Positions 27,964 through 44,619 of a stretch of 56,340 nt of DNA are shown piece by piece. Source of the DNA: Candidatus Rokuibacteriota bacterium (GTDB taxonomy: Bacteria; Methylomirabilota; Methylomirabilia; Rokubacteriales; CSP1-6); NCBI GenBank assembly GCA_003220675.1, contig QHTD01000063.1:1-56340 (forward strand), in the 5' to 3' direction. Each line of letters opens with the position of its first letter. The stretch's first letter is position 1. The position numbers were made by a program, and so were the translations under genes. Below the pieces are notes generated by a model. It was given only the letters and a program-made list of their open reading frames with translations. It made no database searches and had not been told where the DNA came from.

Positions 27964-27966
27964 GCG

Positions 27967-29178
27967 TCAGTAGAGGAGCATGTCGTGCGCCCGCGCCGGC
28001 CCCGTCGGGAGCTTGGTGAAGTCCACGTCGAAGAACGGATCCATCTTGAGCCGACCGTCCGGGCCGATGTGGACGAGCCGAACCCAGAAGTTTCCGGAGT
28101 AGTCCATCGTCGAGAGGAGCGAGTTCGTGACGTACATGCGCTTGCCGTCCATCGTCACGTGCATCATGTTCGGGGACACGCCGGGAACCACGGTGTCGTG
28201 GAGCCGAGGCCGGTCGGGGCGCGACACGTCCCACGCCTGGATCTCGCTCCGCATGAAGCAGGAGACGTAGAGGTAGCGGTCGTCCGGCGACTGGCGGAGA
28301 TCCGCGGGCAGGCACCCCTTGCCGAGGTCCGCCGCCTTCTTCGCCGTGAAGCTCCCTGCCTTCGTCTGCGCGAAGAACCAGATCGAGTCGCCGAGCGCCG
28401 AGTTGGTCCAGCCGTGCGTCGCCCCCGGCTTGAGGCTCCAGCGCACCTCGAGCGGGACCGGGTCGGTGACGAGCGTCTGGATCACCTTGCGCTCCTTGAA
28501 GTCCCAGACGAGCATCGTGTTGCCGCCATCCTTCATGTCCCACTGCGCGAGCGGCTTCATGTAGTTGCGGAGCGGCGTGAAGCTCGAGGTGATCATGCGG
28601 TTGATCTCGGGCTTCACGGCGACGTCGTACGCGTAGGGCGCGTTGTCCGGGTTCTTGAACACCCGGATGAGCTGGCCGTCGTTCGTGAACTCGGCCAGGC
28701 CCCCCGGCGGAGCCCCGTCGGCGGAGGACAGAAACGTGAGGAGCATGCGCCCGGGCAGCGCGTAGTACGTGTGGGGCCCGTGAAACCCGGTCAGCGCGCT
28801 GACGTCGTCGATGGTCTTGACGATCCTCGGCTTGGCGGGATCGGCGGCGACCTCCAGGATGAAGAGCCGTTTGGAGAGCAGGGTCCCCGCCCAGATCTTG
28901 GTCCGGTCGTCGGTGAAGCCCATGTGGTGCGGCTCGTTGCCCGCCGAGCCGAGATCCACCGTGTTGATGACGCGCCCGTAGCCGGGCGAGGCGAGGTTGA
29001 CGTCGATGACGGCGAGGAAATCGTTGTCCTTGGCGTCGGCATCGACCGAGTAGACGTAGAGGTACTTCTCGGGCGCCGCCAGGCGCTTCACGTAGGGGGA
29101 CAGGCACACTTCCGCGACGGCAACGCTCGCGGTGGCGATGACGGCGAGGAGAGCGAGGGAAAGCGTCCGGCGCCTCAT
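27967..29178 (-). CDS. Secreted SBP56 / methanethiol-oxidase-like beta-propeller protein
   Basis: Start ATG 29178 with AGGAGG SD; signal peptide; EVCLSPY, EPHHMGFTDDR, GPHTYYALPGRML, PLEVRW, DGKRMYVTNSL, AHDM. Confidence 0.88.
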   Translation of the reverse strand: MRRRTLSLALLAVIATASVAVAEVCLSPYVKRLAAPEKYLYVYSVDADAKDNDFLAVIDVNLASPGYGRVINTVDLGSAGNEPHHMGFTDDRTKIWAGTLLSKRLFILEVAADPAKPRIVKTIDDVSALTGFHGPHTYYALPGRMLLTFLSSADGAPPGGLAEFTNDGQLIRVFKNPDNAPYAYDVAVKPEINRMITSSFTPLRNYMKPLAQWDMKDGGNTMLVWDFKERKVIQTLVTDPVPLEVRWSLKPGATHGWTNSALGDSIWFFAQTKAGSFTAKKAADLGKGCLPADLRQSPDDRYLYVSCFMRSEIQAWDVSRPDRPRLHDTVVPGVSPNMMHVTMDGKRMYVTNSLLSTMDYSGNFWVRLVHIGPDGRLKMDPFFDVDFTKLPTGPARAHDMLLY

Positions 29179-29251
29179 GGAAATCCTCCTGGTTGACCGG
29201 ACCCTAGCACACGCGGGTGGTTCCAGCAACGCGGGGCGCCGCGCTGGCCGG

Positions 29252-29279
29252 TTGACAAGCCGGTCGATTCGCCGATAAT
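29252..29279 (+). promoter_or_regulatory. Sigma70-type promoter
   Basis: TTGACA (29252-29257), 16-nt spacer, GATAAT (29274-29279). Confidence 0.55.
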
Positions 29280-29345: not shown

Positions 29346-30911
29346 ATGACCATGGGCCGATCGACGCCGTTCGAGGGCAGGCTGGCTCGCGCCGTCGTCG
29401 TGACGCTGCTCGTGTGCGTGGGGCTCGGCACGCCCACGTCGTCCCGCGCCGCGCCCGAGGGGCAGCTGACGTGGGGCGTCCACATCTCGCTCGCCCCGAC
29501 GTGGTTCGACCCCGCCGAGACCGCGGGGATCATCACGCCCTTCATGGTGCTCTACGCGCTCCACGACGCGCTGGTGAAGCCGATGCCCGGCAACCCGATG
29601 GCGCCCAGTCTCGCCGAGTCGTGGAGCGCCTCGCCCGACGGGCTCGTCTACGAGTTCGTCCTGCGCAAGGGCGTCAGGTTCCACACCGGCGACCCCGTGA
29701 CCGCCGAGGACGTCAAGTTCTCCCTCGAGCGCTACCGCGGCACGGCCGCCTCCTCCTTCAGGGAGCGCATCGCCGCCGTCGAGGTGATCGACCCCCAGCG
29801 CGTGCGCGTCCGTTTCAAGCAGCCGTGGCCCGACTTCATGACCTTCTACGGGACCCCGGCGACCGGGGCCGGCTGGATCGTGCCGAAGAAGTACGTCGAG
29901 AAAGTCGGCGACGACGGCTTCAAGAAGGCCCCGGTGGGAGCTGGCCCGTACCGGTTCGTCTCCTTCACGCCGGGCGTGGAGCTGGTGCTCGAAGCCTACG
30001 AGCAGTACTGGCGCAAGACCCCGAGCGTGAAGCGCCTGGTGTTCAAGGCGGTGCCGGACGAGTCGACGCGCCTGGCGATGCTCAAGCGCGGCGAGGCCGA
30101 CATCGTCTACTCGATCCGCGGCGCCCTGGCCGAGGAGCTCCAGCGGACGCCCGGGCTCACGCTCAAGCCCAACTACCCGCCCGCCACCTTCTGGCTCGTC
30201 TTCGTCGATCAGTGGGATGCGAAGTCGCCGTGGCACGACCGGCGAGTGCGCCTGGCCGTCAACCTGGCGATCGACCGAGCGGCGATCAACCAGGCCGAGA
30301 CCCTGGGCTTCTCGAAGATCAACCACAGCATCATTCCCTCGAGCTTCGACTTCTTCTGGCAGCCGCCCGCGTACGCGTACGATCCGGCCAGGGCCCGGCA
30401 GCTCCTCGCCGAGGCCGGCTACCCGAACGGCTTCGACGCCGGTGACTACTACTGCGACGTGTCCTACGCCAACCTCGCGGAGGCCGTCGTGAATTACCTG
30501 AAGGCGGTCGGCATCCGGGCCCAGCTCCGGCCGCTCGAGCGCGCGGCGTTCTTCGCCCAGTACCGGGAGAAGAAGCTCCGGAACATCATCCAGAGCGGCT
30601 CCGGGGCCTTCGGGAACACGGCGACCCGCCTCAAGGCGTTCGTCGCCGCCGCCGGCGCCTACGTCTACGGCAGCTATGCCGACGTCGACGGGCTCTTCCG
30701 CGAGCAGGCGAGCGAGATGGACCGGAAGAAGCGCGAGGCGACGCTCCAGCGGATCCAGCAGCTCATGCACGAGAAGGCGATGGTCGCGCCGATCTGGGAG
30801 CTCGCCTTCATCAATGGCCACGGGCCACGCGTGGAGGAGTCGGGCCTGACGCTCATCACCAACCACGCCTACTCCGCGCCGTACGAGGACCTGAGGCTCA
30901 AGCCGAGGTGA
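29346..30911 (+). CDS. Orphan ABC substrate-binding protein, family 5 (peptide/nickel type)
   Basis: Signal peptide; PSLAESW, FVLRKGVRFH.G..TAEDVKFS, PVGAGPY, YDPARARQLLAEAGY; no adjacent permease. Confidence 0.93.
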   Translation: MTMGRSTPFEGRLARAVVVTLLVCVGLGTPTSSRAAPEGQLTWGVHISLAPTWFDPAETAGIITPFMVLYALHDALVKPMPGNPMAPSLAESWSASPDGLVYEFVLRKGVRFHTGDPVTAEDVKFSLERYRGTAASSFRERIAAVEVIDPQRVRVRFKQPWPDFMTFYGTPATGAGWIVPKKYVEKVGDDGFKKAPVGAGPYRFVSFTPGVELVLEAYEQYWRKTPSVKRLVFKAVPDESTRLAMLKRGEADIVYSIRGALAEELQRTPGLTLKPNYPPATFWLVFVDQWDAKSPWHDRRVRLAVNLAIDRAAINQAETLGFSKINHSIIPSSFDFFWQPPAYAYDPARARQLLAEAGYPNGFDAGDYYCDVSYANLAEAVVNYLKAVGIRAQLRPLERAAFFAQYREKKLRNIIQSGSGAFGNTATRLKAFVAAAGAYVYGSYADVDGLFREQASEMDRKKREATLQRIQQLMHEKAMVAPIWELAFINGHGPRVEESGLTLITNHAYSAPYEDLRLKPR

Positions 30912-30927
30912 GAACGCAACGACCGTC

Positions 30928-33162
30928 ATGAAACTCACGATTCGTCTCGTCGGGGCCATCTGGCTCTCGGTGCTGATCGTCATCGGGGGGTTCGCGTTCC
31001 TGCAGATCCGCGAGGAGCGCGAGCGGCTCGTCGACGACCTGAAGCGCCGCGCGGTCCTCGTGGGCGAGGGGCTCAAGGAGGCGATCGAGCCCCAGGTGGC
31101 GCGCGACTCGACGGCGGGCGTCGAGCGAATATTGAAGAAGTTCGGGACGGCGCGGCGCGGGATCGCGGTGTACGACCGGTTCGCCGGCCTGATGGTCGCG
31201 ACGCCCGACATCGCGCCGTCCCTCCCACCGTCGCTCCCCGAAGTGACCGACGCGGTCGCCAACGACGTCGTGAGCCAGGGCTTTCGCGTCGTGGGTGTCC
31301 GGCGGGCGTACGTGTACGCGACGCCCCTCACGCGGGACGACCGGGCGGTGGGTGCGCTCGTGGTGATCCTCGACGCCGCGCACCTGGAGGGCGCGGCGTG
31401 GAACCTCTGGTGGAGCAACGCGCTCCGGTTCCTCGCTTTGGCGCTCGTCGTCTCGCTCATCGCGCTGGTCGTCGTGCGGAGCAGCGTCACGCAGCCGATG
31501 GCGAAGATGTCGGAGTGGACGAAGAGCCTCCGCGCCGGGCGCTACGTGCCGCCACCCGACGTGCCCGACGCCAACGTCTTCGGCCCGCTGGCGCGCGAGG
31601 TGGCGGGGCTCGCGCGGAGCATGCAGCGGGCCCGGGCGGCGGCGGAGCAGGAGGCCGCGCTGCGCCTGGTGGGCGAGTCCATCTGGACGGAGGAGCGCCT
31701 CAAGCAGTTCGTCAACCTCCGCCTCGCCGGCCGGCCGCTCGTCGTCGTGTCCAACCGCGAACCGGTGAGCCACGTGCGGAAGGGCGGGCGGATCCAGACT
31801 CTGACGCCCGCCAGCGGGCTCGTGACCGCGATGGATCCGATGATGCGCGCGTGCGGCGGCGTGTGGGTCGCTCACGGGAGCGGCGATGCCGACCGGGAGA
31901 CCGCGGACGCGCGCGGGCGGCTCGGCGTGCCGGAGGACGACCCGCGCTACACGCTGCGCCGGGTGTGGCTGACGAAGGAGGAGGAGCACGGCTACTACTA
32001 CGGGTTCGCGAACGAGGGGCTCTGGCCGCTCTGCCACATCGTGCACACGCGGCCCGTGTTCCGGCCCGACGACTGGGCCCACTACCTCGCGGCGAACCGC
32101 ACGTTTGCCGAGACGCTGCTCGACGAGATCCGCGACGCCGAGGAGCCGCTCGTCCTGATCCAGGACTACCACTTCGCGCCGCTGCCCGCGCTCATCAAGG
32201 CGGAGCGGCCCGACGCCCGTGTGGCGATCTTCTGGCACATCCCGTGGCCGAACTCCGAGGCCTTCGCGATCTGCCCCTGGCAGCCGGAGCTGCTCGCCGG
32301 GATGCTGGGCGCCGACCTCGTCGGCTTCCACACGCAGTACTACTGCAACAACTTCCTCGAGACGGTCGACCGCACGCTCGAGACGCGGATTGACTGGGAG
32401 CGCTTCACGGTCACCCGCGGCGAGCGCGTGACCGCCGTCAAGCCCTTTCCGATCAGCGTCGCGCCCGGGTTCGTCGACGATCCGCCCCAGCGCACGCGCG
32501 AGGAGCTCCTGCGCGAGCTCGGGGTCTCGGCCGAGTTCCTCGGCGTCGGCGTCGAGCGGGTGGACTACACGAAGGGGCTCCCCGAGCGCTTCCGCGCGCT
32601 CCGGTGGTTCTTCGAGCGCTACCCGGAGTACCGCGGGCGCGTCGTGTTCGTGCAGCTCGCCGCGCCGAGCCGCTCCACGATCAAGCGCTACGCGGAGCTC
32701 GCGCTGGAGGTCGAGCAGACCGTCCGCGAGGTGAACGAGGCGCTCGGGACCGTGAGCTGGCGGCCGATCCTGTACCTCGCCCGCCACCACGAGCACCGCG
32801 AGATCTGGTCCTACTACCGTCACGCGGACTTCTGCATGGTCACCTCGCTCCACGACGGCATGAACCTCGTCGCCAAGGAGTTCGTCTCTGTTCGCGACGA
32901 CGAGGACGGCGTGCTCATCTTGAGCCGGTTCGCCGGCGCCTCCCAAGAGCTACGGGACGCGCTGATCATCAACCCGTATGACCTCGCTGGCGCCGCCGAG
33001 GCGATCCGCACGGCGCTGGAGATGCCGAAGGAGGAGCGGCACGCGCGGATGACACGGATGCGCTACGTCGTGAGCGAGCACAACATCTACCGCTGGGCCG
33101 GGCTCCTCCTGAGCGAGCTGTCCAGAATCCCGGTCGAGACACCGGGAGTCAAGACGTCCTGA
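30928..33162 (+). CDS. otsA: Trehalose-6-phosphate synthase (GT20) fused to an N-terminal TM-extracytoplasmic sensor-TM-HAMP module
   Basis: Two TM helices around a ~140-aa domain, a HAMP-like segment (QPMAKM...PLAREVAGLARSM), then intact OtsA motifs SNREP, SGLV, YYGFANEGLWPLCH, QDYH, HIPWP, RVDYTKG, DGMNLVAKE, NPYD. Confidence 0.93.
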   Translation: MKLTIRLVGAIWLSVLIVIGGFAFLQIREERERLVDDLKRRAVLVGEGLKEAIEPQVARDSTAGVERILKKFGTARRGIAVYDRFAGLMVATPDIAPSLPPSLPEVTDAVANDVVSQGFRVVGVRRAYVYATPLTRDDRAVGALVVILDAAHLEGAAWNLWWSNALRFLALALVVSLIALVVVRSSVTQPMAKMSEWTKSLRAGRYVPPPDVPDANVFGPLAREVAGLARSMQRARAAAEQEAALRLVGESIWTEERLKQFVNLRLAGRPLVVVSNREPVSHVRKGGRIQTLTPASGLVTAMDPMMRACGGVWVAHGSGDADRETADARGRLGVPEDDPRYTLRRVWLTKEEEHGYYYGFANEGLWPLCHIVHTRPVFRPDDWAHYLAANRTFAETLLDEIRDAEEPLVLIQDYHFAPLPALIKAERPDARVAIFWHIPWPNSEAFAICPWQPELLAGMLGADLVGFHTQYYCNNFLETVDRTLETRIDWERFTVTRGERVTAVKPFPISVAPGFVDDPPQRTREELLRELGVSAEFLGVGVERVDYTKGLPERFRALRWFFERYPEYRGRVVFVQLAAPSRSTIKRYAELALEVEQTVREVNEALGTVSWRPILYLARHHEHREIWSYYRHADFCMVTSLHDGMNLVAKEFVSVRDDEDGVLILSRFAGASQELRDALIINPYDLAGAAEAIRTALEMPKEERHARMTRMRYVVSEHNIYRWAGLLLSELSRIPVETPGVKTS

Positions 33163-33164
33163 CC

Positions 33165-33938
33165 GTGCCGCCTCGTCTCCTCGCGCGTCTCGAGCGTGAG
33201 CTCGCGCGCGGCGCCGGTCTCGTGGCGATCCTCGACTACGACGGGACGTTGACCCCGATCGTCCCGTCGCCGCGGGCGGCGGTCCTCGCGCCGTCGGTGA
33301 GGACCACCCTCCTGCGTCTGGCAGCGAGCGACCGCGCCCGCCTGGCGATCCTCTCGGGGCGCGCGCTGGCAGATGTCCGAGCCAGGGTCGCGATCGACAA
33401 CGTCATCTACGGTGGCTGTCACGGCCTCGAGATCCAGGGCAGGGGCCTCGCCTTCCGCCATCCGCGGGTCCGCGCGGCGCGGATCGTCGCGGCGCGGCGC
33501 ACGCTCGCCGCCGGGGCCGAGGCGATCCCGGGCTCGCGCGTCGAGTTCAAGGGGCTCGCGGTGAGCCTCCACTACCGGCGCGTGGCGCTCTCACGGCGCC
33601 GCGCGGTGCGGGACCTCGCGACGCGTGTGCTGCGCCGCGTGCCGGATCTGGCGCTCATCTCCGGGCGTGAGGTCTTCGACTTCGTGCCGCGGGTCCGCTG
33701 GAGCAAGGGCGAGGCCGCCCGCTGGATCGCCCGCCGCGCGGGACGGACGCTGCGACGCGGCAGGCCGGTCGTCGTCTACGCGGGCGACGACGCCACCGAC
33801 GAGGCGGCGTTCGCCGCGCTGAAGGGGCGCGCGCTGACCGTCCGGGTCGGCGACGGACCGAGCGTCGCGGAGTACCGTGTCCGTGATGTCCGGGCGATGC
33901 AGGCGGTGCTCCGGCGCCTCGCCGTCGCCCTCGGCTGA
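33165..33938 (+). CDS. otsB: Trehalose-6-phosphate phosphatase
   Basis: HAD motifs DYDGTLTPI, SGR, HGLE, LHYR, KG, GDDATDE. Confidence 0.93.
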   Translation: MPPRLLARLERELARGAGLVAILDYDGTLTPIVPSPRAAVLAPSVRTTLLRLAASDRARLAILSGRALADVRARVAIDNVIYGGCHGLEIQGRGLAFRHPRVRAARIVAARRTLAAGAEAIPGSRVEFKGLAVSLHYRRVALSRRRAVRDLATRVLRRVPDLALISGREVFDFVPRVRWSKGEAARWIARRAGRTLRRGRPVVVYAGDDATDEAAFAALKGRALTVRVGDGPSVAEYRVRDVRAMQAVLRRLAVALG

Positions 33939-33963
33939 CACGGTCCCGTCGACAGGGTACGAT
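33935..33963 (+). promoter_or_regulatory. Internal promoter CTGACA-N17-TACGAT
   Basis: CTGACA 33935-33940, TACGAT 33958-33963, ATG 9 nt later with no SD. Confidence 0.55.
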
Positions 33964-33972
33964 CTCCCCACG

Positions 33973-34638
33973 ATGCGTACGGCCGCGCGCCCGTTCCTCT
34001 TCGTGGGTTGCGTCGAGCTGCGACAAACGCTCGACTCGCACGCGCGCGACGCACGCGAGCTGATGCACCGACTGGCGGAAGTGCCGGCCGACTCCGTGTT
34101 TTTCCACACCTTCGGCTACTTCCTCCGCCACCGGCCGTTCACGACGGCGTACGGCAACGACTTCGCCCGGTGGGCTGCGGTCGAGATCGGCGACCGCACG
34201 CTCGCCGAGCGCCTGGCCGTCGTGGATCCGTTCGCGTTCGCGACCGTCGAGGCGCTGCGCGAGCACCTCGTGACGATTCTCCAGGACCACCTGCGGCTGC
34301 ACGGCGGCGACCCCCGCGTCGAGTTCGACCGGGCGTTCCATTTCCAGCGCTCGCACATCGTCGAGGTGGGGCTCGGGCTCGCCGCGACGACGCTCGCGGA
34401 GTTCCGCGCGGGGCTCGCGGCCGCCGACGCGAGCGCCATCTATCTGCACACGGTCGAGGCGCGGGCTCGAGGCGGCCGCCGCGCCGGCGACTTCGCCGAG
34501 TGGCTCCGGGCGGCGCTCGAGCTGCCGACGCTCGCGGAGCGGTTCCAGCGCGTCGACCCGTACCTGACGACGCTGGAGCGGGTCCGCGGGCGGCTCTTGA
34601 GCCTCGTCGATCGGGCGCTGGAGGAGGAGCCGGCGTGA
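33973..34638 (+). CDS. DUF5752-like protein (TreT-associated, OrfY-like)
   Basis: Start ATG 33973; internally repeated motifs PF.F..C, SVFFHT..NDFARW and SAIYLH..EAR..DFAEW, ..DPY..TLE..R; typical position before a TreT-like GT. Confidence 0.75.
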   Translation: MRTAARPFLFVGCVELRQTLDSHARDARELMHRLAEVPADSVFFHTFGYFLRHRPFTTAYGNDFARWAAVEIGDRTLAERLAVVDPFAFATVEALREHLVTILQDHLRLHGGDPRVEFDRAFHFQRSHIVEVGLGLAATTLAEFRAGLAAADASAIYLHTVEARARGGRRAGDFAEWLRAALELPTLAERFQRVDPYLTTLERVRGRLLSLVDRALEEEPA

Positions 34639-35825
34639 GCCGGATCGACGACTACCGTCAGGTGGCTCCGCAGGGCGCGGTGGACATGATACTGAAATTG
34701 GCCGACCGCGTGCGGGGGCGACGGTTCCTCAACGTCACCGGCGGGCGGCTGGGCGGCGGCGCGGCCGAGATCCTCCGCGAGGCTGTCCCGATCCTCAGCG
34801 ACCTGGGTGTCGACACGAGCTGGGAGATTACGGGGGGCGATTCCCCCTACTATGCGACCGCGCGCGCGCTTCAGGCGACGCTCGAGGGCGCGGAGCGTGT
34901 GCTCAGCGACGAAGGCCTCGCCCGCTGGGTCGAGGTGAACCGGGTCAATGCCAAGAAGCTCATGCTCGACGCCGACCTCGTCCTCGTCCACGACGTCCAG
35001 CCCGCGAGCCTGGTGACCCACCGCACCGACGGCCGGTGGGTCTGGCGGTGCCACTTCGACTGCTCGGCCGCCCGCCCGGCCGCCTGGTCCTTCTTCCGGC
35101 GGTTCGCCGATCAGTATGATGCGGCAGTTTTCTCGCTGCCGGGGTTCGAGTGCCGGCTGGGCATCCCGATGTACGTCATCCAGCCGTCCATCGACCCGCT
35201 GTCCGAGAAGAACCGGGAGCTGTCGCCGCGCGAAGTCGCGGACATCCTGGCTGCGCTCCGCGTGGTTCCGGACAAGCCGCTGCTGGTCCAGATCGGGCCG
35301 TTCACGCCGGGGTACGATCCGATAGGCGTCGTGAACGCTTACCGGTTGGTGGAGAAGCACCACGACGTGAGGCTCGTCCTGGCGGGCATGGCCGACGACG
35401 AGCCCGAGCGGGTCGAGATCCGGGACGAGCTCCTGCAGGCCGCCCGCGAGGACCCCGACGTCGTCGTGCTCGAGCTGCCGGCGGACGCGCACCGTCAGAT
35501 CAACGCGCTTCAGCGGGCGGCCACGATAGTCTTGCAGAAGTCGGTGCGCGCGGGGTTCGAACTCGGCCCCGCCGAGGCGATGTGGAAGGGCAAGCCCGTG
35601 ATCGGTGGCTACGCGGGCGGCCTCGCGCAGCAGATCATTCCCGACGTGACCGGCTACATGGTCCACTCCGTGGACGGCGCCGCGTTCCGGATCCGCCACC
35701 TCCTCAACAATCCAGAGCTGATCCCCCGGATGGGCGCTGCCGGCCGGGAGCACGTGCGGCGCTCGCTCCTCATCACGCGCCACCTGATGGACTTTCTGGC
35801 GCTCATGATCCACCTCGCGCAATGA
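34635..35825 (+). CDS. TreT-like GT4 glycosyltransferase with degenerate donor-binding motifs
   Basis: Start GTG 34635; GGGAAE, HDVQP, WRCH, PSIDPLSEKN, INALQR, EAMWKGKPVIGG; but QIGPFTPGYDP and RAGFEL in place of SRFDxxKDP and REGFGL. Confidence 0.85.
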   Translation: MSRIDDYRQVAPQGAVDMILKLADRVRGRRFLNVTGGRLGGGAAEILREAVPILSDLGVDTSWEITGGDSPYYATARALQATLEGAERVLSDEGLARWVEVNRVNAKKLMLDADLVLVHDVQPASLVTHRTDGRWVWRCHFDCSAARPAAWSFFRRFADQYDAAVFSLPGFECRLGIPMYVIQPSIDPLSEKNRELSPREVADILAALRVVPDKPLLVQIGPFTPGYDPIGVVNAYRLVEKHHDVRLVLAGMADDEPERVEIRDELLQAAREDPDVVVLELPADAHRQINALQRAATIVLQKSVRAGFELGPAEAMWKGKPVIGGYAGGLAQQIIPDVTGYMVHSVDGAAFRIRHLLNNPELIPRMGAAGREHVRRSLLITRHLMDFLALMIHLAQ

Positions 35826-37081
35826 CGGACCGCCTCCAGGCCCCCGCGTTCCCGGCCGAGGTCGAGCGTCAGCTCGAGGGCGCCTCACCGTGCGAGATCG
35901 CCCTCGGCGTGCTCACCTACAACAACGCGACGACCGTGCCGACAGTCGTGGAGGTCGTCCGCACAGGCCTCGAGCGTCACTTCGCCGGCATTCCCGCCGT
36001 GCTGATCAACGCCGACGCCGGCTCGTCGGACGCGACGCCGGATCTTCTCGCGGCGGCCGGGCTCCCCCTCGTCCGGGCGCGTCACGAGACACCGCTCGCC
36101 CAGCGCATCGCCGTGCCCTTCCACGGCGTGCCCGGGCGTGGCGCCGCGCTCCGTCTGACCTTCGCCGTCGCGCGGCGGCTCGGCGCGCGCGCACTCGTGC
36201 TGCTGGAGGCCGACGTGACCTCCGCGGGCGCCGAGTGGCTCAGGCACCTGCTCCGTCCCGTGCTCGAGCAGAAAGCGGACCTCGTGGTCCCGGTGTACGC
36301 GCGCCACCGTTACGACGGCACGCTCACGAACCTCGTCCTGGCGCCGCTGGTCCGTGCGCTCTTCGGGCGCCGGCTGCATCAGCCGCTGGCGGGGGCCGCG
36401 GCGCTCTCCGCCCGGCTGCTCGATCGTCTGCTCGACGACCCGCGATGGCCGGCGCCCGGACAGAACCAGACGGACCTCTGGATCGAGGCGACCGCGATCG
36501 TCGACGGCTTCGCCGTCTGGGAGGCGTGGCTCGGCCGACGGCGCGCGGAATCGCGGACCCGCACGGCGGACCTGCCGACGATGGTGGCCCAGGCGGTCGG
36601 CGGACTCTTCGCCGTGATGGGCCGGTACGACGACCTGTGGCTCGAGATCCGCGGCAGCGAGCCCGTCCCCGCCACGGATGCGCCGGTCATCCCGTCGGTG
36701 GAGCCCGTGGCCCTCGACGTCGACCGCATGGTGGACGCGTTCCGGCGAGGGCTCCGGGATCTCGGCGCGATCTGGGAGCACATCCTGGCGCCCGAAACGC
36801 TCGGCGACGTCCTGAGCCTCGACACGGCCAGCCCGGCGCGGCTCGCCTTCCCGGACGAGTTGTGGGCGCGCGTGGTCTACGACTTCGCGCTCGGCTACCA
36901 CTACAACGTCGTGTACCGCGACCACCTGCTGCGCTCGCTCGTCCCGCTCTACCTCGGCCGCACCGCCGCGTTCGTCGTGGCGACGCGCGACCGCGACGCC
37001 GGGGCCGCCGAGGCCCACCTGGACGCGGTTGGCGCGGCCTTCGAGCGGCACAAACGCTACCTCGTCGAGCGGTGGCGATGA
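35822..37081 (+). CDS. GT-A (GT2 / glucosyl- or mannosyl-phosphoglycerate synthase-like) glycosyltransferase with degenerate motifs
   Basis: Start ATG 35822; [48 protein letters not shown]. Confidence 0.8.
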
Positions 37082-37112
37082 CGATCATCGAAGGGGCGCG
37101 GGCCTCGCGACC

Positions 37113-38801
<1,689 letters not shown>

Positions 38802-38808
38802 ATCATCG

Positions 38809-38830
38809 ACGGGGGCCTCGACGGCCCCGT
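38809..38830. repeat. Partial copy of the REP-like hairpin
   Basis: GGGGGCCTCGACGGCCCC (38811-38828) is the exact reverse complement of 27201-27218; follows CTAG (treS stop). Confidence 0.7.
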
Positions 38831-38891
38831 AAACACAGGAGGCCAGCGTACTCGAAGCTGAAGCAGAAACCGACGGAAACCAGGAGGGATC

Positions 38892-39551
38892 ATGATGAAC
38901 CAACGGATCTGTGCATTCGCCGTCTCGATGCTGGTGCCCGCGGCGATCGTCGCCGCGTGTGCGAAGCGTACCGTCACGGTGGACGTCTCCGCTCCGCCAC
39001 GGGCCGCCGCGCCCGCACCACCGCGCTCGGGTGGAGCCGCGGCGACGGAGTCGCCAGTCACGCCGCTCACGGAGGTCACGACGCGGCCGGGCACGGCGTC
39101 GCCCGGCACGACGTCGCCCGGCACGTCGTCGCCCGGCGCGGCGTCGCCCGGCACGTCGGAGCCGCGCGCGCCGCTCGGGTCGGCGCGTCCGGCCCCCGCC
39201 GAGTTCGCCGCGCGGGCCGAGCTCGAGGACATCCACTTCGACTTCGACCGCCACGACATCCGCCCGGGCGACGCGAGGATCCTCGACGTCAGCGCGGCCT
39301 GGCTTCAGGAGAACCCGGGCACGCTCGTCCTCATCGAGGGCCACTGCGACGAGCGTGGCACGGACGCCTACAACCTGGCCCTCGGCGACCGTCGCGCGAA
39401 GGCCGCGATGGACTACCTCGTCTCGCGCGGCATCCAGGCCGAGCGGATGAACACGCTGAGTTACGGAAAGGAGAAGCCCGTGTGCCAGGAGCACACCGAG
39501 GCGTGCTGGGCCAAGAACCGGCACGCCCACTTCCTCGTGAAGGCGCGCTGA
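38892..39551 (+). CDS. pal: Peptidoglycan-associated lipoprotein (OmpA-like C-terminal domain)
   Basis: Lipobox VAAC; IHFDFDR, IEGHCDERGT..YN.ALGDRRA, SYGKEKP.C.....C...NR. Confidence 0.88.
   Translation: MMNQRICAFAVSMLVPAAIVAACAKRTVTVDVSAPPRAAAPAPPRSGGAAATESPVTPLTEVTTRPGTASPGTTSPGTSSPGAASPGTSEPRAPLGSARPAPAEFAARAELEDIHFDFDRHDIRPGDARILDVSAAWLQENPGTLVLIEGHCDERGTDAYNLALGDRRAKAAMDYLVSRGIQAERMNTLSYGKEKPVCQEHTEACWAKNRHAHFLVKAR
39087..39161 (+). repeat. Five tandem 15-bp repeats encoding PG[T/A][A/T/S]S-like units in the Pal linker
   Basis: ccgggcacggcgtcg / cccggcacgacgtcg / cccggcacgtcgtcg / cccggcgcggcgtcg / cccggcacgtcggag. Confidence 0.9.
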
Positions 39552-39566
39552 CTCTAGGTCCGGGCG

Positions 39567-40832
39567 GTGCGCCGCGTCCTCCTCGTGCTCTGGGTCGCCG
39601 CCCTGACCGGCTGTGCCGGGAGCGCGCCCGAGCGCGGCGCCATCACGCTGGTGTTCAAGTACGCGCGCATCCTCGGGCCGGCGGATCCTCTGCCGGGGCT
39701 CTTGCGCGAGTTCGAGGCGGCGCATCCGAACGTCCGCGTCAAGGGCGAGTCGCTGCCGTGGACGTCAGACGAGCAGCACCAGTTCTACGTCATCAACCTC
39801 GAGGGGAGGAGCCCCGGCTTCGACGTGATGATGCTCGACCTCATCTGGGTGCCCGAGTTCGCGCGCGCCGGCTGGCTGCTCGACCTCACGCCGCGTCTCG
39901 GCCCGGGCGAGCTCCGGCCGTACTTCCCGAGCACGGTCGAGGCGGCGACGTACGACGGCCGCGTCTTCGCGCTGCCCTGGATCATGAACGTCGGGCTCCT
40001 CTACTACCGCGCGGACCTCCTCCGGAAGTACGGGCTCGAGCCGCCGGAGACCTTCGAAGCGCTCGTGCGGCAGGTGCGCCGGATCCGGGAGGGCGAGCGC
40101 GACCCCGCGCTCGACGGCTACCTGTGGCAGGCGAAGCAGTACGAGGGGCTCGTGGTGAACGTTCTCGAATCGTTCTGGGCGAACGGGACGCGGCTGCTCG
40201 CGGCCGACGACACGGTGTTCCCCGAGCCCGAGCGGGCCGCCGAGGCGCTCGCGTTCCTCCGCGGGCTCATCGCGTCGGGCGTGAGCCCGGCCTGGACGAC
40301 GGCGGCGGACGAGGAGCTCTCGCGGCGCGCCTTCGGCGACGGCCACGCGATCTTCCTCCGGAACTGGCCGTACGCAATGGACCTGTTCCAGGCGCGGGAC
40401 TCCAGGGTGCGCGGCCGCGTCGGGATCGCGCCGCTGCCGCGGCTCGCGCGCGGCCCGCGGGGCGCGGGCTCGACCGGCGGCGCGCACCTCGGCGTGTCCC
40501 GGCGGAGCCGCCACCCGGACCTCGCGGTCGGGCTGGTGCGCTTCCTCACGAGCGAGCGCGCCCAGAAAGCGCTCGCGCGCGGCGCGGCGCTCTCCCCAAC
40601 GCGCGAGGCGCTCTACGACGACCCCGAGCTCGTGCGGAGCCGCCCCGACCTCCCGGCGCTCCGCGCGCTCATGCGCGCGGGCCGCCCGCGTCCCGTCACG
40701 CCCTACTACCTCTTGCTCTCCGCGACGGTCCAGCCCGAGTTCTCGGCGGTCCTGGTCGGCGTCAAGCCGCCAGGGCGCGCGATCGGCGACGCGCGTCTCA
40801 GGCTCACCCACTTCTTCGGGGCGCTCCGGTGA
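39567..40832 (+). CDS. Sugar ABC transporter substrate-binding lipoprotein (trehalose/maltose-binding type)
   Basis: Lipobox LTGC; DLIWVPEFA, LLYYRADLL, QYEGL, FLRNWPY, GGAHL, RPVTPYY. Confidence 0.88.
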   Translation: MRRVLLVLWVAALTGCAGSAPERGAITLVFKYARILGPADPLPGLLREFEAAHPNVRVKGESLPWTSDEQHQFYVINLEGRSPGFDVMMLDLIWVPEFARAGWLLDLTPRLGPGELRPYFPSTVEAATYDGRVFALPWIMNVGLLYYRADLLRKYGLEPPETFEALVRQVRRIREGERDPALDGYLWQAKQYEGLVVNVLESFWANGTRLLAADDTVFPEPERAAEALAFLRGLIASGVSPAWTTAADEELSRRAFGDGHAIFLRNWPYAMDLFQARDSRVRGRVGIAPLPRLARGPRGAGSTGGAHLGVSRRSRHPDLAVGLVRFLTSERAQKALARGAALSPTREALYDDPELVRSRPDLPALRALMRAGRPRPVTPYYLLLSATVQPEFSAVLVGVKPPGRAIGDARLRLTHFFGALR

Positions 40833-41701
40833 CCGGGCGCGAGCGCGCAGACCGGCGACAGGCGCTTCGCTTGCTGGCGCCGACGCTCCTGGCGCTCGGC
40901 GCGCTCACGGTCTACCCGGGATTCTGGGTGGTGTGGCTCTCGCTCCAGCATCGGGTCCCGATCTTCCACGTGGCGCGCTTCGCCGGACTCGACAACTACG
41001 TGTTCCTCGCGAGCGACCCGCGCTTCTGGAACGCCGCGCGCACGACGGTGGTCTTCACCGCCCTGTCGGTGGCGCTCGAGCTCGCGCTGGGCGTCACGGT
41101 CGCGCTCGCGCTCCACCGCCAGCGGCGCGGCCGGCGGCTCGGGCTCTCGCTCCTTCTCCTGGCGTGGGCGATGCCGTCGGTGGTGACCGCGAAGCTCTAC
41201 GAGTGGCTCTACCATCCCGCAGCCGGGCTCGTCAGCGTGCTGCTCGGCGGTCACGCGTTGAACTGGCTTGGCGACCCGTACCTGGCGCTCCCGGCGGTCA
41301 TCCTCGCCGACGTGTGGCGCACCATGCCCTTCGTCGCGATCCTCTGCTACGCGCGCCTGGTGACGATTCCCGCGGAGGTCTACGAGGCGGCTCAGGTGGA
41401 CGGCGCCGGCCGGCTGGCGACGCTCGGCCGCATCACGCTGCCGCTGCTGGGCCGCATCGTCATGTTAGCGCTCCTCCTGCGGATGCTCGACGCGCTGCGC
41501 GCGTTCGATATCATGTTTGTGCTCACGGGCGGTGGTCCGGCGGGTACCACCGAGACACTCACGGTCTACGCCTACCGGAGCCTCTTCCAGATGCTCCAGC
41601 TCGGCTTCGGCTCGGCGGTCAGCGTGGTCGTCTTTGCGCTCGTGATGGGCGTCGCGTGGGCGTACCTCCGGCTGCTCCGCGCACGCGCGGTCGTGGCGTG
41701 A
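40829..41701 (+). CDS. Sugar ABC transporter permease (MalF/SugA type)
   Basis: Start GTG 40829; GLDNY, ADVWRTMPF, YEAAQVDGA, LDALRAFD, LTGGGP. Confidence 0.92.
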   Translation: MTGRERADRRQALRLLAPTLLALGALTVYPGFWVVWLSLQHRVPIFHVARFAGLDNYVFLASDPRFWNAARTTVVFTALSVALELALGVTVALALHRQRRGRRLGLSLLLLAWAMPSVVTAKLYEWLYHPAAGLVSVLLGGHALNWLGDPYLALPAVILADVWRTMPFVAILCYARLVTIPAEVYEAAQVDGAGRLATLGRITLPLLGRIVMLALLLRMLDALRAFDIMFVLTGGGPAGTTETLTVYAYRSLFQMLQLGFGSAVSVVVFALVMGVAWAYLRLLRARAVVA

Positions 41702-42519
41702 GACGCCCGGAACAGACCCTTGTCGACGTGCTGGTCCTGCTGGCGCTCGGCGCGTATGCGGTGCCGTTCTTCTGGCAGCTCCTGACGTCGTTCAAGCCCG
41801 AGACCGAGCTGCTGCGCGTCCCGCCGCTCCTGCCGAGCCGGCTGACGCTCGCGCATTATAGCGTCGTGCTCGAGCAGAGCCTGATCCCCCGTGCGCTCGT
41901 GAACAGCGTGGGGATCGCGACGCTGACGACCCTCCTGGCGCTCGCGGTGGGGGTGCCCGGCGCGTACGCGATCGCGAGGCTCCCGCTGCCCGGCAAGGGC
42001 GCCCTCCTCCTCGCGATCGTCGCGAGCACGGCGTTTCCGCAGATCGCGACCGTGAGCCCGCTCTACCTCCTGATGCGCACGATCGGCCTCCGAGACACCT
42101 GGGCGGGCCTCGTCCTCGTCCACTCCTCGTTCGCGCTGCCGCTGACGATCTGGCTCCTCGTCGGGTTCATCCGCGAGATTCCCCGCGAGGCCGAGGAGGC
42201 TGCGTCCGTCGACGGCGCCGGCACGCTCGCGACGCTCCGCTGGGTCGTGGCGCCCCGGCTCGCGCCCGGGATCGCCTCGACCGCGCTCCTGACGTTCCTG
42301 TTCAGCTGGAACGAGTTCCTCTTCGCGTACACGTTCACGGCCTCGGAGGCGAGCCGGACGATTCCGGTCGCGCTCGCGCTCTTCCCCGGCGTCTACGAGG
42401 TGCCCTGGGGCGACATCGCCGCCGCGTCCATGCTGGCGAGCCTGCCGCCCGTGCTCATCGTGATCGGGCTCCAGCGGTTCCTGGTCCGCGGGCTCGTCGC
42501 CGGCGCACTCAAAGAGTAG
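41698..42519 (+). CDS. Sugar ABC transporter permease (MalG/SugB type)
   Basis: Start GTG 41698; TSFKP, AYAIARL, EEAASVDGA, SWNEFLFA. Confidence 0.92.
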   Translation: MRRPEQTLVDVLVLLALGAYAVPFFWQLLTSFKPETELLRVPPLLPSRLTLAHYSVVLEQSLIPRALVNSVGIATLTTLLALAVGVPGAYAIARLPLPGKGALLLAIVASTAFPQIATVSPLYLLMRTIGLRDTWAGLVLVHSSFALPLTIWLLVGFIREIPREAEEAASVDGAGTLATLRWVVAPRLAPGIASTALLTFLFSWNEFLFAYTFTASEASRTIPVALALFPGVYEVPWGDIAAASMLASLPPVLIVIGLQRFLVRGLVAGALKE

Positions 42520-42535
42520 AAAAGGGGGATCGAGC

Positions 42536-42844
42536 ATGGAAGGACAACAGCGCTGGGGCTTCGGCGGCCGTCTTGACCCCCTGCTGAAGCGCGCGCGGCG
42601 GATCGCGATCGCGGTGATCGGTGGCACGGTGCTCCTGGTCGGTGGAGCGATGATCATCCTGCCCGGGCCGGCACTGATCGTCATTCCGGTCGGCCTGGCC
42701 ATTCTCGCGACCGAGTTCGTTTGGGCGCGCCGCCTCCTGGAGCGCGTCCGGGCCCGGGTGCGGCGGGCTACGGCGCCGGACGCGCCCGACGCGAGCAAGC
42801 CCGACTCGGGGGAGCGGCGAAGCCGCACGATTTTCGAGAAATAG
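42536..42844 (+). CDS. PGPGW-domain small membrane protein
   Basis: GGAMIILPGPA...GLAILATEFVWARR. Confidence 0.85.
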   Translation: MEGQQRWGFGGRLDPLLKRARRIAIAVIGGTVLLVGGAMIILPGPALIVIPVGLAILATEFVWARRLLERVRARVRRATAPDAPDASKPDSGERRSRTIFEK

Positions 42845-42910
42845 GCCGTGCGCGGCTCACTGAGAGAGGCGGGCGCTTCCCGGCGGAACCGCGTACACTC
42901 TCCAGGGGTT

Positions 42911-42935
42911 TGGGGGGCCATGTCGGGGCCTCCCA
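42911..42935. repeat. Second-type intergenic palindrome
   Basis: TGGGGGGCC-atgtcgg-GGCCTCCCA, a 9-bp stem with one G-T pair, followed by CTAG at 42940. Confidence 0.5.
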
Positions 42936-42958
42936 TTCCCTAGATCACGAGGTGCGCC

Positions 42959-43255
42959 ATGGGGCTCAAGTACATTGTTGTCGCCGTCGTCGCCATTGCC
43001 ATCACCGCCTTTGCGCTCCAGAACAACACGCCGACCGCCGTCCGCTTCCTGTTCTGGAACCTCCCCGGGGTCCCGCTGGCGACGATCATCCTCGTGTCGG
43101 TCACCCTGGGCGTCGTGCTCGTCGGCGTGCCGCTCCTGATCGGGCGCTGGCGGCTGCGCTTGCGCCTACGCTCGCTCGAGGCGCGGGTCGGCACGACCGA
43201 GACGCGAGACGGCGAGCGCGACCGCGCCTCGGGGTCCTCGCAGTCCTGGCCGTGA
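42959..43255 (+). CDS. LapA/DUF1049-family membrane protein
   Basis: GAGGTG SD; FALQN...V.FLFW...PLA, second TM helix, short basic coiled coil. Confidence 0.82.
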   Translation: MGLKYIVVAVVAIAITAFALQNNTPTAVRFLFWNLPGVPLATIILVSVTLGVVLVGVPLLIGRWRLRLRLRSLEARVGTTETRDGERDRASGSSQSWP

Positions 43256-43296
43256 GCGCGCGAACGGGAGCTTCCCGCCTGGACCGGAGGGAGAGA

Positions 43297-43818
43297 ATGA
43301 TGGAGGTCAGTCGATCACGAGCGCTGCCGGTGGTGCTGCTCGGTACGCTGATCGTCGGCGGGTGTGTCCTAGCGCCGCCGGCGGGAACGCTCGACCCGCC
43401 GCGCGTCGAGGTCCTCGCGACCGACGCGCGCGCGGTCCGCTACGGCGCGGAGGCGGCCCAGGTTTTCGAGCACCCGGAGATTCGGGACAAGGTGCGCGCG
43501 CTCTTCGGCCGCGACTGGAGCGCGGACGGCGCGCGCTGGGTCTCGGCGCCGGTGCCCGCGTTCTTCTCGAAGTCGTCGCCGCCGCAGGTGCTCCGAATCG
43601 GGGAGACCGACTACATCGCCCTGGTCGGATGCATGGCGGCGGCGTGCGCGACCCGTCGAGCGCTCGTGCTCGTGAGCGCCGACGGCGAGCGTCTGCTCGC
43701 CCGCGTGGACGACGGCGGCTTGACGCACCTCTACGCCTTCGGGCCCGGGATGATCACGCTGACGCCGGAAGATCGGCTGGTCGTCGAGGCGGCGTGGCGC
43801 GCGCTCCAGCCGCACTGA
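43297..43818 (+). CDS. Hypothetical lipoprotein, possibly Ivy-like
   Basis: Start ATG 43297 or 43300 after GGAGG; lipobox-like VGGC; GCMAAAC loop. Confidence 0.65.
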   Translation: MMEVSRSRALPVVLLGTLIVGGCVLAPPAGTLDPPRVEVLATDARAVRYGAEAAQVFEHPEIRDKVRALFGRDWSADGARWVSAPVPAFFSKSSPPQVLRIGETDYIALVGCMAAACATRRALVLVSADGERLLARVDDGGLTHLYAFGPGMITLTPEDRLVVEAAWRALQPH

Positions 43819-43911
43819 CGCGTGGCGCGGACCTGATGCTTGGTCTCGTGGTGTCGCCGCGGTGGCGACGCAAGCGGCGCGGCTCGGCGCGCGCCCGGGG
43901 AGGGCCGGTCG

Positions 43912-44619
43912 ATGGCTGATTTCTGGCGCGATCTCATCTGGACCGCCGTCCGCGACACGACGAACACGCTGAGCGTGGTGATGCCTGGTGTCCTCGCGAT
44001 GCTCGCGCTCGTGGTGCTGGGCGCCGTGCTCGGCTGGATCGGCGGCGCACTCGTCAGGCGTCTCGCCCACGCCGGGGACCTCGACCGGCGGAGCCGAGAG
44101 TGGGGCCTGACGCACGCGCTCGCGCGTGCGGGCGTCTACAGGACGCCGTCGGAGCTTCTGCGGCTCGTCGTGTTCTGGGGCGTCTTCGTGATCTTCGCGA
44201 CCATGGGGATCGACGCCCTCGCGATTCCCGGCGCGCCGGGCGCCACGGGGATGCTGATGTACCTGCTTCCACGCGCGCTCTCCGCGCTGCTGATCCTCGT
44301 GGTCGGCTGGCTTGCGGCGAACTTCCTCGGGCAAGCGGTGCTGATCGCCGCGGTCAACGCGAGCCTGCCCGAGGCGCGGCTCCTGGCCCGCGCGGCCCGA
44401 TGGCTCGTGCTGCTGTTCGCGTTCGCGACAGCGCTCACCGAGATCGGGATCGGCCGCGACATGGTTCTGGTCGCCTTCGGCATCCTCTTCGGCGGGCTCG
44501 TGCTCGCCCTGGCGCTCGCCTTCGGCCTCGGCGGTCGTCACCTCGCCCGCCACATCCTGGAGCGCGGGCGGCTGCGCGAGCGGGTGCCCTCGGACCGCGA
44601 GACCATCAACCACATCTGA
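43912..44619 (+). CDS. CmpX-like / MscS-associated conserved TM-helix membrane protein
   Basis: Start ATG 43912; repeated P..L..L..L..GW helices, YLLPR, AFG...ALALAFGLGGR. Confidence 0.8.
   Translation: MADFWRDLIWTAVRDTTNTLSVVMPGVLAMLALVVLGAVLGWIGGALVRRLAHAGDLDRRSREWGLTHALARAGVYRTPSELLRLVVFWGVFVIFATMGIDALAIPGAPGATGMLMYLLPRALSALLILVVGWLAANFLGQAVLIAAVNASLPEARLLARAARWLVLLFAFATALTEIGIGRDMVLVAFGILFGGLVLALALAFGLGGRHLARHILERGRLRERVPSDRETINHI

Follow-up and report, generated by a model that had tools for sequence, protein, structure and literature searches.

A candidate trehalose homeostasis operon combining a receptor-type OtsA with a putative pseudo-glycosyltransferase module in Rokubacteriales

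Why would a bacterium keep two apparently silenced glycosyltransferases (GTs) among its trehalose genes, next to a synthase that seems to carry its own sensor? This question is raised by a locus of 14 genes (g1 to g14, positions 30928–44619) in a window of 56,340 nucleotides, the whole stretch analysed, from a Candidatus Rokuibacteriota bacterium of the phylum Methylomirabilota (contig QHTD01000063.1; assembly GCA_003220675.1, 4.08 Mb in 437 contigs, 96.9% complete). The locus encodes a receptor-type trehalose-6-phosphate (T6P) synthase, OtsA, followed by the phosphatase OtsB, an OrfY/DUF5752 protein, two GT homologues called here TreT* and Ggs*, the trehalose synthase TreS, a sugar importer and several envelope proteins. 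The answer favoured here, at a probability of roughly 0.5, is that it would be a trehalose homeostasis operon, in which a receptor-type OtsA is combined with a repurposed pseudo-glycosyltransferase module whose proteins would serve as ligand-binding regulators or scaffolds. Two layers would be superimposed in this operon. In the first, the GT20 domain of OtsA would hang on a periplasmic sensor with two transmembrane (TM) segments and a HAMP-like linker, with OtsB next to it, while TreS would link trehalose to maltose and to the GlgE alpha-glucan route, and an importer of the trehalose/maltose-binding protein (TMBP) type would take up trehalose/maltose. The second layer would be an accessory module, OrfY(DUF5752)–TreT*–Ggs*, with the membrane protein g14.

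A receptor-type OtsA among trehalose enzymes and transport genes

The first gene, g1 (30928–33162, + strand), encodes the receptor-type T6P synthase (PF00982, E 8e-119), and the second, g2 (33165–33938, +), separated from it by 2 nt, encodes OtsB (Trehalose_PPase, PF02358, E 2e-35). The GT20 domain of g1 (residues 271–732) is full length, spanning positions 3–472 of the 473 in PF00982, and aligns end to end with the OtsA/Tps1 structures solved in the PDB (E 6e-75). Its segments ERVDYTKG and DGMNLVAKEF are identical to residues of solved Tps1, the R-x4-K and DGMNLV-x-x-E patterns being kept; from what is known of E. coli OtsA, these are presumably the donor-phosphate Arg/Lys and the C-domain Asp/Glu. 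The NCBIfam model TIGR02400 gives 430 bits, below its cut-off of 565, and g1 is the sole GT20 match in the genome. As judged from its sequence, g1 is a member of a divergent OtsA subfamily with a 270-residue N-terminal extension.

Hydropathy peaks place two TM segments in this extension, at residues 7–25 and 165–183, on either side of a periplasmic domain of about 140 residues, and a HAMP-like linker would follow at about residues 186–235. We call this N-terminus a two-TM sensor with a HAMP-like linker, predicted to be sCache-like. A P...G...E-x-x-x-L-A pattern after TM2 is conserved in an alignment of eight g1 homologues, some homologues are named “HAMP domain-containing” by JGI, and the NCBIfam WalK model matches g1 over its TM-HAMP region (E 6e-6). 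When a profile of this alignment of eight was compared with the PDB, the seven best matches were all the Af1503 HAMP domain, aligned end to end with residues 186–235, at E values of only 0.11–0.23. Language-model (Atlas) features of g1 also resemble those of sCache_3_2/HAMP clusters (0.96–0.97).

PF00982 is carried by all 120 listed homologues of g1 residues 1–270. Among 201 sampled genomes from the phylum, 153 matched the N-domain at E<=1e-5, a tally that takes in weak matches and the unpublished genomes G028, G057, G100 and G151. Strong matches sit in open frames of about 740–800 residues, and the weak ones (20–29% identity) are probably other sensors, not OtsA. The receptor-like N-terminus that a first, sequence-only reading of this DNA had proposed for OtsA is supported by these data. 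No description of a sensor-fused OtsA came out of a literature search of limited coverage. In functional terms, the sensor and its linker would modulate the GT20 domain, an extracytoplasmic cue setting T6P synthesis directly. Sensor-OtsA would then be a simple model of how compatible-solute synthesis is controlled after translation; the phylum concerned is abundant in soil, uncultured and exposed to drying and rewetting, and about three quarters of its sampled genomes show sensor-domain matches.

Interconversion and uptake are represented further downstream. The gene g6 (37113–38801, +) encodes TreS (maltose alpha-D-glucosyltransferase; Alpha-amylase and Malt_amylase_C domains), described at the outset as intact, and TIGR02456 matches it with 909 bits against a cut-off of 678. 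In the genome of the window, the GlgE gene lies on a separate contig. The importer consists of a trehalose/maltose-type ABC substrate-binding protein, g8 (39567–40832, +; SBP_bac_1, PF01547), whose best PDB match is the trehalose/maltose-binding protein of Thermococcus litoralis (1eu8, E 3e-70), and of two permeases, g9 (40829–41701, +) and g10 (41698–42519, +), both with BPD_transp_1 (PF00528). The trehalose/maltose ABC system of Thermococcus litoralis and Pyrococcus also comes with treT, and both there and in the window a TreT-type gene is clustered with the importer; in contrast, the cluster studied here has no malK ATPase or TrmB, and its TreT is degenerate. The enzymes and transport proteins of this first layer, for synthesis, interconversion and uptake, are shown by homology, and the trehalose theme given to the locus in the sequence-only reading is supported.

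A maltokinase-like gene (Mak_N_cap, APH) was observed between TreS and a Pal-like gene in a relative of the same genus (L032:10790-12334), with a gap of the same size in a second one (L033). In the window this gene is missing from the corresponding position (38801–38892), and a search with the L032 gene as the only query did not find it elsewhere in the genome, a negative of little weight.

The OrfY–TreT*–Ggs* module

The module starts with g3 (33973–34638, +), a DUF5752 protein (PF19027, E 3e-54). A structure model built from 24 sequences (pLDDT 90) has a single solved match in Foldseek, OrfY of Thermoproteus tenax (4cso; E 5e-15, TM score 0.81–0.84, 30% identity), the second-best match being at E 0.67. 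The link between DUF5752 and OrfY is therefore sustained at the level of the fold, and since DUF5752 folds like T. tenax OrfY in this model, DUF5752 is taken to be OrfY and g3–g4 to be a bacterial orfY–treT pair. DUF5752 was found in 150 of the 201 sampled genomes, counting the unpublished G028 and G100. Loci were compared in two sets, 40 anchored on DUF5752 (from 40 genomes) and 20 anchored on g5, 60 in all. In the first set, DUF5752 is followed by a TreT homologue at 40 of 40 loci, and g3 is a universal partner of TreT-type genes. OrfY/DUF5752 has remained a solved structure without a function, to which the module would give a testable context; a literature search of limited coverage returned nothing on DUF5752, and only an unrelated paper for TreT with orfY.

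The likeness to the T. tenax treT–orfY pair thus lies in the OrfY fold of g3 and in its pairing with a TreT homologue, which in the window comes directly after it. The enzyme of T. tenax is active. In contrast, the TreT of the window lacks R-x4-K and the first Glu (see below), and a Ggs-like protein is added to the pair, the whole being set among OtsA/B, TreS and an importer.

TreT* is encoded by g4 (34635–35825, +), a GT4-family paralogue of TreT with TreT_GT1 and Glycos_transf_1 matches. Its homology to solved TreT structures is full length (6zj4, E 6e-93; 2x6q/2xa2, E 1e-83 to 9e-83), and it is the lone TreT_GT1 match in the genome, with an NCBIfam TreT equivalog score of 295 bits, below the cut-off of 775. 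The S-R-x4-K of the T. uzoniensis and P. horikoshii enzymes is replaced in g4 by G-P-x4-Y (P222, Y227), and the first Glu of E-x7-E (E-G-F-G-L in solved TreT) by A306. This is also the only position that distinguishes the P. horikoshii entries 2x6q, which has E there, and 2xa2, which has A and is an engineered E326A mutant. Both motifs, R-x4-K and E-x7-E, have a general role in retaining GT-B enzymes. In a study on a ciliate TreT, the predicted ADP-contacting residues, derived from AlphaFold, are S268/R269/K274 and E377/E385 (PMC13166879).

A motif table of 41 TreT-like rows from 40 genomes separates two kinds of TreT. The H-D-R-K-E-E set is kept in 10 rows, only one of which has g5 downstream; R and/or K are gone in the other 31, of which 28 have g5 downstream. 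The three remaining R/K-lost rows come from L042, from L046 (a poor row) and from L055, whose two genes were merged by ORF extension. At the K position, degenerate rows variously show E, D, Q, H, T, A and others. In a maximum-likelihood tree of 38 rows, drawn without L046, L052, L055 and a truncated copy from L039, a single clade (support 91/97) unites 28 of the 29 rows without R and/or K, and L065 branches without resolution beside canonical rows. Both kinds occur together in genomes G029 and G183. Despite these losses, g4 has 72 columns invariant over 20 sequences, including the Gly-rich loop and the acceptor-side W-x-W-R-C-H-x-D, the GGG-x-x-E loop being nearly invariant. Taken together, g4 is probably a pseudoenzyme whose donor site has been lost.

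In G183, a single contig (L056, G183:C1:5147035-5166652) carries, in this order, TreS, GT4, a kinase-like gene (APH/Mak-type), OrfY, TreT*, g5 and g14 homologues and, after these, another OrfY next to a TreT of the canonical kind with R and K intact, placing degenerate and intact OrfY–TreT pairs side by side.

The next gene, g5 (35822–37081, +), encodes Ggs*, a GT-A domain with a helical C-domain. Used alone in phmmer against the PDB, it gave a chance match only, and the NCBIfam GpgS model matches it weakly (E 2e-10). Its structure model (pLDDT 88.9) is aligned by Foldseek over its whole length with mannosylglycerate synthase (MGS) of Rhodothermus marinus (2bo7/2y4j; E 3e-13, TM 0.64–0.73, TMq 0.64–0.66, 420–426 aligned columns), GpgS ranking next; a g5 family profile likewise aligns with GpgS (E 7e-9) and MGS (E 5e-6). 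The DxD of GpgS corresponds to E129-A130-D131 in g5, the metal His to an Ala, PGK to PGR and GGE to AGA.

The g5 family counts 564 relatives in a scan of one genome per species, of which the best 80 are Methylomirabilota, together with Nitrospirota and one Acidobacteria-labelled metagenome-assembled genome (MAG) at about 42% identity. In a joint alignment of 50 rows, DxD, P-G-K, G-G-E/D and K-I/V-H are kept in 12 of 13 Nitrospirota/Acidobacteria rows, in L061 and in L065/L142. The metal His is gone in all 34 other Methylomirabilota rows (A, V, T, L or I at this site), which show EAD, EAE, NAD or DAG at DxD, R for K, and A, Q or C for the Glu. On the other hand, 31 columns are invariant over 20 sequences, including the nucleotide-side D-x-G-x-x-D-x-T (D65/G67/D70/T72, nearly invariant). 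GpgS_Meth and the MPGP phosphatase have no match in the genome of the window. From the model and these alignments, g5 appears to be a silenced GT-A of the mannosylglycerate/glucosylglycerate-synthase type. The sequence-only reading had called both GTs degenerate, and both calls survive the comparison with relatives, on R, K and Glu for g4 and on His, Glu and DxD for g5.

The known glycosylglycerate genes give a second frame of comparison. Persephonella marina has a Ggs operon for glucosylglycerate synthesis. Set against this operon, GpgS–GpgP and R. marinus MGS, g5 shares the two-domain MGS fold and aligns to the GpgS motifs, and its motif-intact relatives adjoin GpgS-like and MPGP-family phosphatase genes; the g5 of the window differs by the loss of the metal His and of the GGE Glu, in a genome without a GpgS_Meth or MPGP match.

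Are g4 and g5 then dead, or do they carry out another reaction? They could still be enzymes with a changed chemistry, the module making or remodelling a second compatible solute beside trehalose, for example with a non-Leloir donor, by trehalose/maltose transglycosylation, by hydrolysis, or by metal-independent synthesis of glucosylglycerate or another solute. The near invariance of D65/G67/D70/T72 in g5 and of the GGG-x-x-E loop in g4 fits this idea, as does the retention of H, D and the second Glu in most TreT* rows (all but four for this Glu) and of the first Glu in about 60%. The family is also found in glucosylglycerate-type clusters of Nitrospirota, and JGI names many g5 homologues “glucosylglycerate synthase”, this name being an automatic label. 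Against it, the lost positions vary freely, at the K site of TreT* and at both the His and DxD sites of g5, which speaks for an abandoned site rather than a retuned one, and the phosphatase and GpgS partners have no match in the genome. A changed chemistry is thus considered doubtful, with a clear minority of the weight.

Purifying selection bears on this issue in both directions. Compared with four relatives, dN/dS is 0.17–0.28 for g4 and 0.28–0.35 for g5, like that of the neighbouring enzymes (g1, 0.22–0.32; g6, 0.17–0.28; g2, 0.20–0.47), as would be expected either of functional non-enzymes or of enzymes with altered chemistry. The same values argue against a third possibility, namely that g4 and g5 are decaying relics without function, kept by operon inertia. 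The loss of catalytic motifs in both would agree with decay, but the frames are full length in all but two or three of 41 + 28 rows from three families of the phylum, the 72 and 31 invariant columns remain, and the start/stop overlaps are conserved; decay is accordingly viewed as highly improbable. These overlaps are of 4 nt at g3/g4 and g4/g5, as they are at g8/g9 and g9/g10, and the overlapping stop and start codons reported from the sequence are real at these four junctions.

On the reading of a repurposed module, the ancestors of TreT* and Ggs* would both have been catalysts, a TreT in the first case and, in the second, a glycosyl(-phospho)glycerate synthase belonging to an older osmoprotectant island. 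In Rokubacteriales, the residues for binding the nucleotide-sugar diphosphate or the metal would have disappeared from both, the partner phosphatase having gone too, and both would have stayed translationally coupled and under purifying selection. No longer making sugar, they may serve trehalose/alpha-glucan flux as regulatory subunits that bind ligands, or as scaffolds.

Such a fate would have precedents. Inactive GT homologues of trehalose metabolism, yeast Tsl1/Tps3 and the plant class II T6P synthases (TPS), are mentioned in Zaparty et al. 2013 (PMC3634074). The window resembles them in keeping catalytically inactive GT homologues in trehalose metabolism; whereas the yeast and plant subunits are GT20 paralogues of the synthase, the dead enzymes here would belong to GT4 (the TreT paralogue) and to GT-A (the Ggs-like protein). 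Dead GTs have repeatedly been recruited as regulators in trehalose metabolism, the GT of T. tenax being one example beside the yeast and plant subunits. Here two GT folds, GT-B in TreT and GT-A in the Ggs-like protein, appear to have been silenced together, and intermediate stages persist in sister lineages, offering a natural series for asking what a GT becomes once catalysis stops. No description of the OrfY–TreT*–Ggs* module was found in a literature search of limited coverage, and among the papers listed on Rokubacteria and trehalose none concerned the cluster by its title or abstract opening.

A fusion of TreT* with the g5 homologue was seen once, as one 829-residue frame (L055:10482-12971, – strand, genome G175) created by a small indel near the stop; the sister genomes L050, L051 and L066 have a TAG stop at this point. 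As G175 is 70% complete in 20 contigs, a possible assembly error has to be reckoned with, and the fusion was set aside as support for a g4–g5 link. A Rosetta-stone search with g5 among longer proteins gave one match (E 9e-11, 25% of the query), and the predicted g4+g5 complex scored 0.00 against a mark of 0.32, evidence neither way.

Neighbours, partners and origin of the module

The gene-neighbourhood comparison proposed with the sequence-only reading gives a mixed outcome. In Methylomirabilota the core is OrfY–TreT*–Ggs*, often with g14, and TreS is nearby, joined by GlgE or a maltokinase in relatives; this unit is narrower than the one first proposed. The sensor-fused OtsA and OtsB join the core in a subclade only, and Pal, PGPGW, LapA and the lipoprotein in one genus only. 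Among DUF5752-anchored loci, TreS is present at 29 of the 30 with g5 versus 2 of the 10 without, whereas a GT20 gene is found at 10 of 40, seven of these with the sensor. The claim that the pseudo-GT module is specifically tied to OtsA does not hold against these figures; its steadiest neighbour is TreS, with OtsA joining in this subclade. Other recurrent neighbours are GlgE, between g5 and TreS in many genomes of family f1, a maltokinase-like gene after TreS at loci of the same genus, and a GT4 gene with a kinase-like gene preceding OrfY in families f2 and f10. The importer is present at 5 of 40 loci, including the distant L061.

It is in this light that the arrangement first proposed has to be weighed, in which OrfY, TreT* and Ggs* would be subunits of a membrane-anchored OtsA (+ OtsB) complex, activating or regulating T6P synthesis. 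The full order of the window recurs at L033, L038, L047, L071, L074 and L117, and L032 has the same order without the importer; at all of these and in the window, OtsA–OtsB–OrfY–TreT*–Ggs* are contiguous and co-oriented. OtsA also lies beside OrfY–TreT in other arrangements, divergently at L034 and downstream at L058, L059 and L065. The T. tenax system offers a model, since its T6P synthase/phosphatase (TPSP) needs a GT4 protein that showed no TPS activity alone, as stated in Zaparty et al. 2013 (PMC3634074), an example that control of this kind exists. The same source describes the tpsp-gt-msc operon as unique to Thermoproteales and the activation as requiring the TPS–TPP (T6P phosphatase) fusion (PMC3634074). 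The window resembles this operon in co-encoding a GT4-family protein, a GT20 synthase and a gene of mechanosensitive-channel type, under a common theme of osmotic stress. It differs in that TPS and TPP are separate genes, with a stop codon between g1 and g2, the TPS being membrane-anchored, and in having two pseudo-GTs plus OrfY, with a g14 that lacks the MscS pore domain. Separate OtsA and OtsB do not fit an activation that needs the fused enzyme. Moreover, most genomes have sensor-OtsA on another contig or far from the module, and at L034, L058 and L059 the TreT paired with OtsA is canonical and g5 is absent; together with the low count of GT20 genes, this makes the OtsA complex quite unlikely.

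The last gene of the locus, g14 (43912–44619, +), encodes a CmpX-like membrane protein with about five TM segments. It had been announced as a CmpX/MscS-type TM protein; it has the TM-helix module only (MS_channel_1st_1, PF05552, weak at E 5e-5 to 6e-5), and no MscS pore/beta domain (PF00924) is found by Pfam even at E<=10; an NCBIfam msc subfamily model reaches E 6e-15 and 55 bits, below its cut-off of 100. In several phyla, g14 is conserved as a partner of the g5 family: it follows g5 at a distance of less than 200 nt at 13 of the 20 g5-anchored loci (all 12 outside the phylum and L142) and at 11 of the 30 DUF5752-anchored loci with g5.

The relatives with intact motifs hint at the origin of the module. 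At the Nitrospira locus L138, the genes run in the order GpgS_Meth-like synthase, g5 homologue, g14 homologue, MPGP-family phosphatase. They make up a candidate regulated operon for glucosylglycerate, one of whose products is a small protein of MscS-TM type. In the same Nitrospiraceae MAG contig (L138:4227-12881), a HAMP-containing histidine kinase was observed directly upstream of the cluster, together with a sigma-54 activator and a response regulator. At L061 and L065, an MPGP phosphatase lies directly upstream of the motif-intact g5, the order at L065 being OrfY–TreS–TreT*–MPGP–g5–g14–MscS–OtsA–OtsB. The MscS gene of L065 (L065:12402-13472, +), between the g14 homologue and OtsA/OtsB, is a true member of its family (MscK/MscS models, E 5e-35 to 4e-23). 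The osmotic-stress flavour given to the system from the start is substantiated by relatives in which MscS, MPGP phosphatase and OtsA/B genes are clustered. The simplest history would be that an ancestral osmoprotectant island made trehalose (by TreT and OtsA/B) and a glycosylglycerate, and that Rokubacteriales then dispensed with the phosphatase and with catalysis by TreT and the Ggs-like protein alike.

A stronger version of the repurposed module can be proposed tentatively, and looks unlikely in its entirety. The GT20 domain would be gated by an sCache-like sensor and HAMP, and OrfY, TreT*, Ggs* and g14 would form a membrane-coupled, non-catalytic, sugar-sensing complex. An extracytoplasmic signal would then switch compatible-solute synthesis without a kinase or a transcription step, and the module, born from two former osmoprotectant synthases, would read levels of trehalose or NDP-glucose, or membrane tension, and tune TreS/GlgE/OtsA flux or solute release.

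Several points weigh against the reading of a receptor-type OtsA with repurposed pseudo-GTs. At the N-terminus of g1, no Pfam family is matched even at E<=10, HAMP and Cache included, and Pfam HAMP is also unmatched in six g1 homologues (E<=1). Two of the changes in g5, K to R and D to E, are conservative, and together with the partly kept Glu residues of TreT* they leave room for altered chemistry. The roles of R-x4-K, E-x7-E, DxD and His are by analogy, from general GT-B/GT-A knowledge and one passage on a ciliate TreT (PMC13166879), in other clades. The regulatory target of the module is drawn from its neighbourhood. Anywhere downstream of g5, g14 is found at only 17 of the 30 Methylomirabilota loci with g5, and, related genomes being not independent, the association counts overstate the number of events.

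Flanking and envelope genes, expression and occurrence

The window has about 70% G+C, for which reason genes were called by third-position GC, with GC3 frame plots and start codons close to preceding stops. The run of 14 co-oriented genes on the + strand described at 30928–44619 was recovered in this way, with likely starts deduced from homologues for g3 (ATG 33973), g6 (ATG 37113) and g14 (ATG 43912). Pfam matched 12 of the 14 proteins at E<=0.01, all but g5 and g13, and all the domain calls made from the sequence were reproduced with Pfam and NCBIfam.

The remaining genes of the locus encode envelope proteins. They are an OmpA-family, Pal-like lipoprotein, g7 (38892–39551, +; PF00691, E 2e-18), with similar genes at 3 of 40 loci (L032 and L033, 70–71% identity; L058, 41%); a small PGPGW membrane protein, g11 (42536–42844, +; PF09656, E 3e-17; 1 of 40 loci, L033); a LapA-domain membrane protein, g12 (42959–43255, +; PF06305, E 3e-12; 2 of 40 loci, L032 and L033); and a putative lipoprotein, g13 (43297–43818, +), with a lipoprotein-like signal only, no Pfam/NCBIfam family and no tblastn match in the 60 compared loci. 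Pal, PGPGW, LapA and the lipoprotein, counted as members of the system in the sequence-only reading, were rejected, since their conservation does not extend past the genus; g7 and g11–g13 are passengers, Pal at the genus level.

Strand alone does not delimit the system, since the + strand run goes on beyond 44619 with tmk, holB, PSP1 and metG, and since g0 (29346–30911, +; SBP_bac_5 periplasmic binding protein, Pfam E 6e-79) ends 17 nt before g1. Considered as a part of the system or a co-sensor of g1, g0 was rejected because, of the 40 loci, only L032 and L033, which belong to the same genus, have it 5' of OtsA; it is probably outside the system. A sigma70-like site (29252–29279, 11 of 12 matches) is found 5' of g0. 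A weaker one (33935–33963, 9 of 12 matches) lies inside the 34-nt gap between OtsB and OrfY, just before g3, a hint that g3–g5 may also have their own transcription. Divergent from the operon, an SBP56 gene (56-kDa selenium-binding protein family; 27319–29229, – strand) adjoins an SCO1/SenC gene.

In two soil RNA libraries, contigs match parts of g1, g2, g4–g8, g10 and g13/g14, in pieces of 150–244 nt at a depth of 2–3.5. They are a weak hint of expression, DNA carry-over being possible and the coverage too thin to show an operon transcript. Near-identical DNA (0.81–0.88 of sampled words, over 30928–38801) occurs in 17 runs of soil metagenomes, spread over 14 studies, which indicates that the population is widespread in soils.

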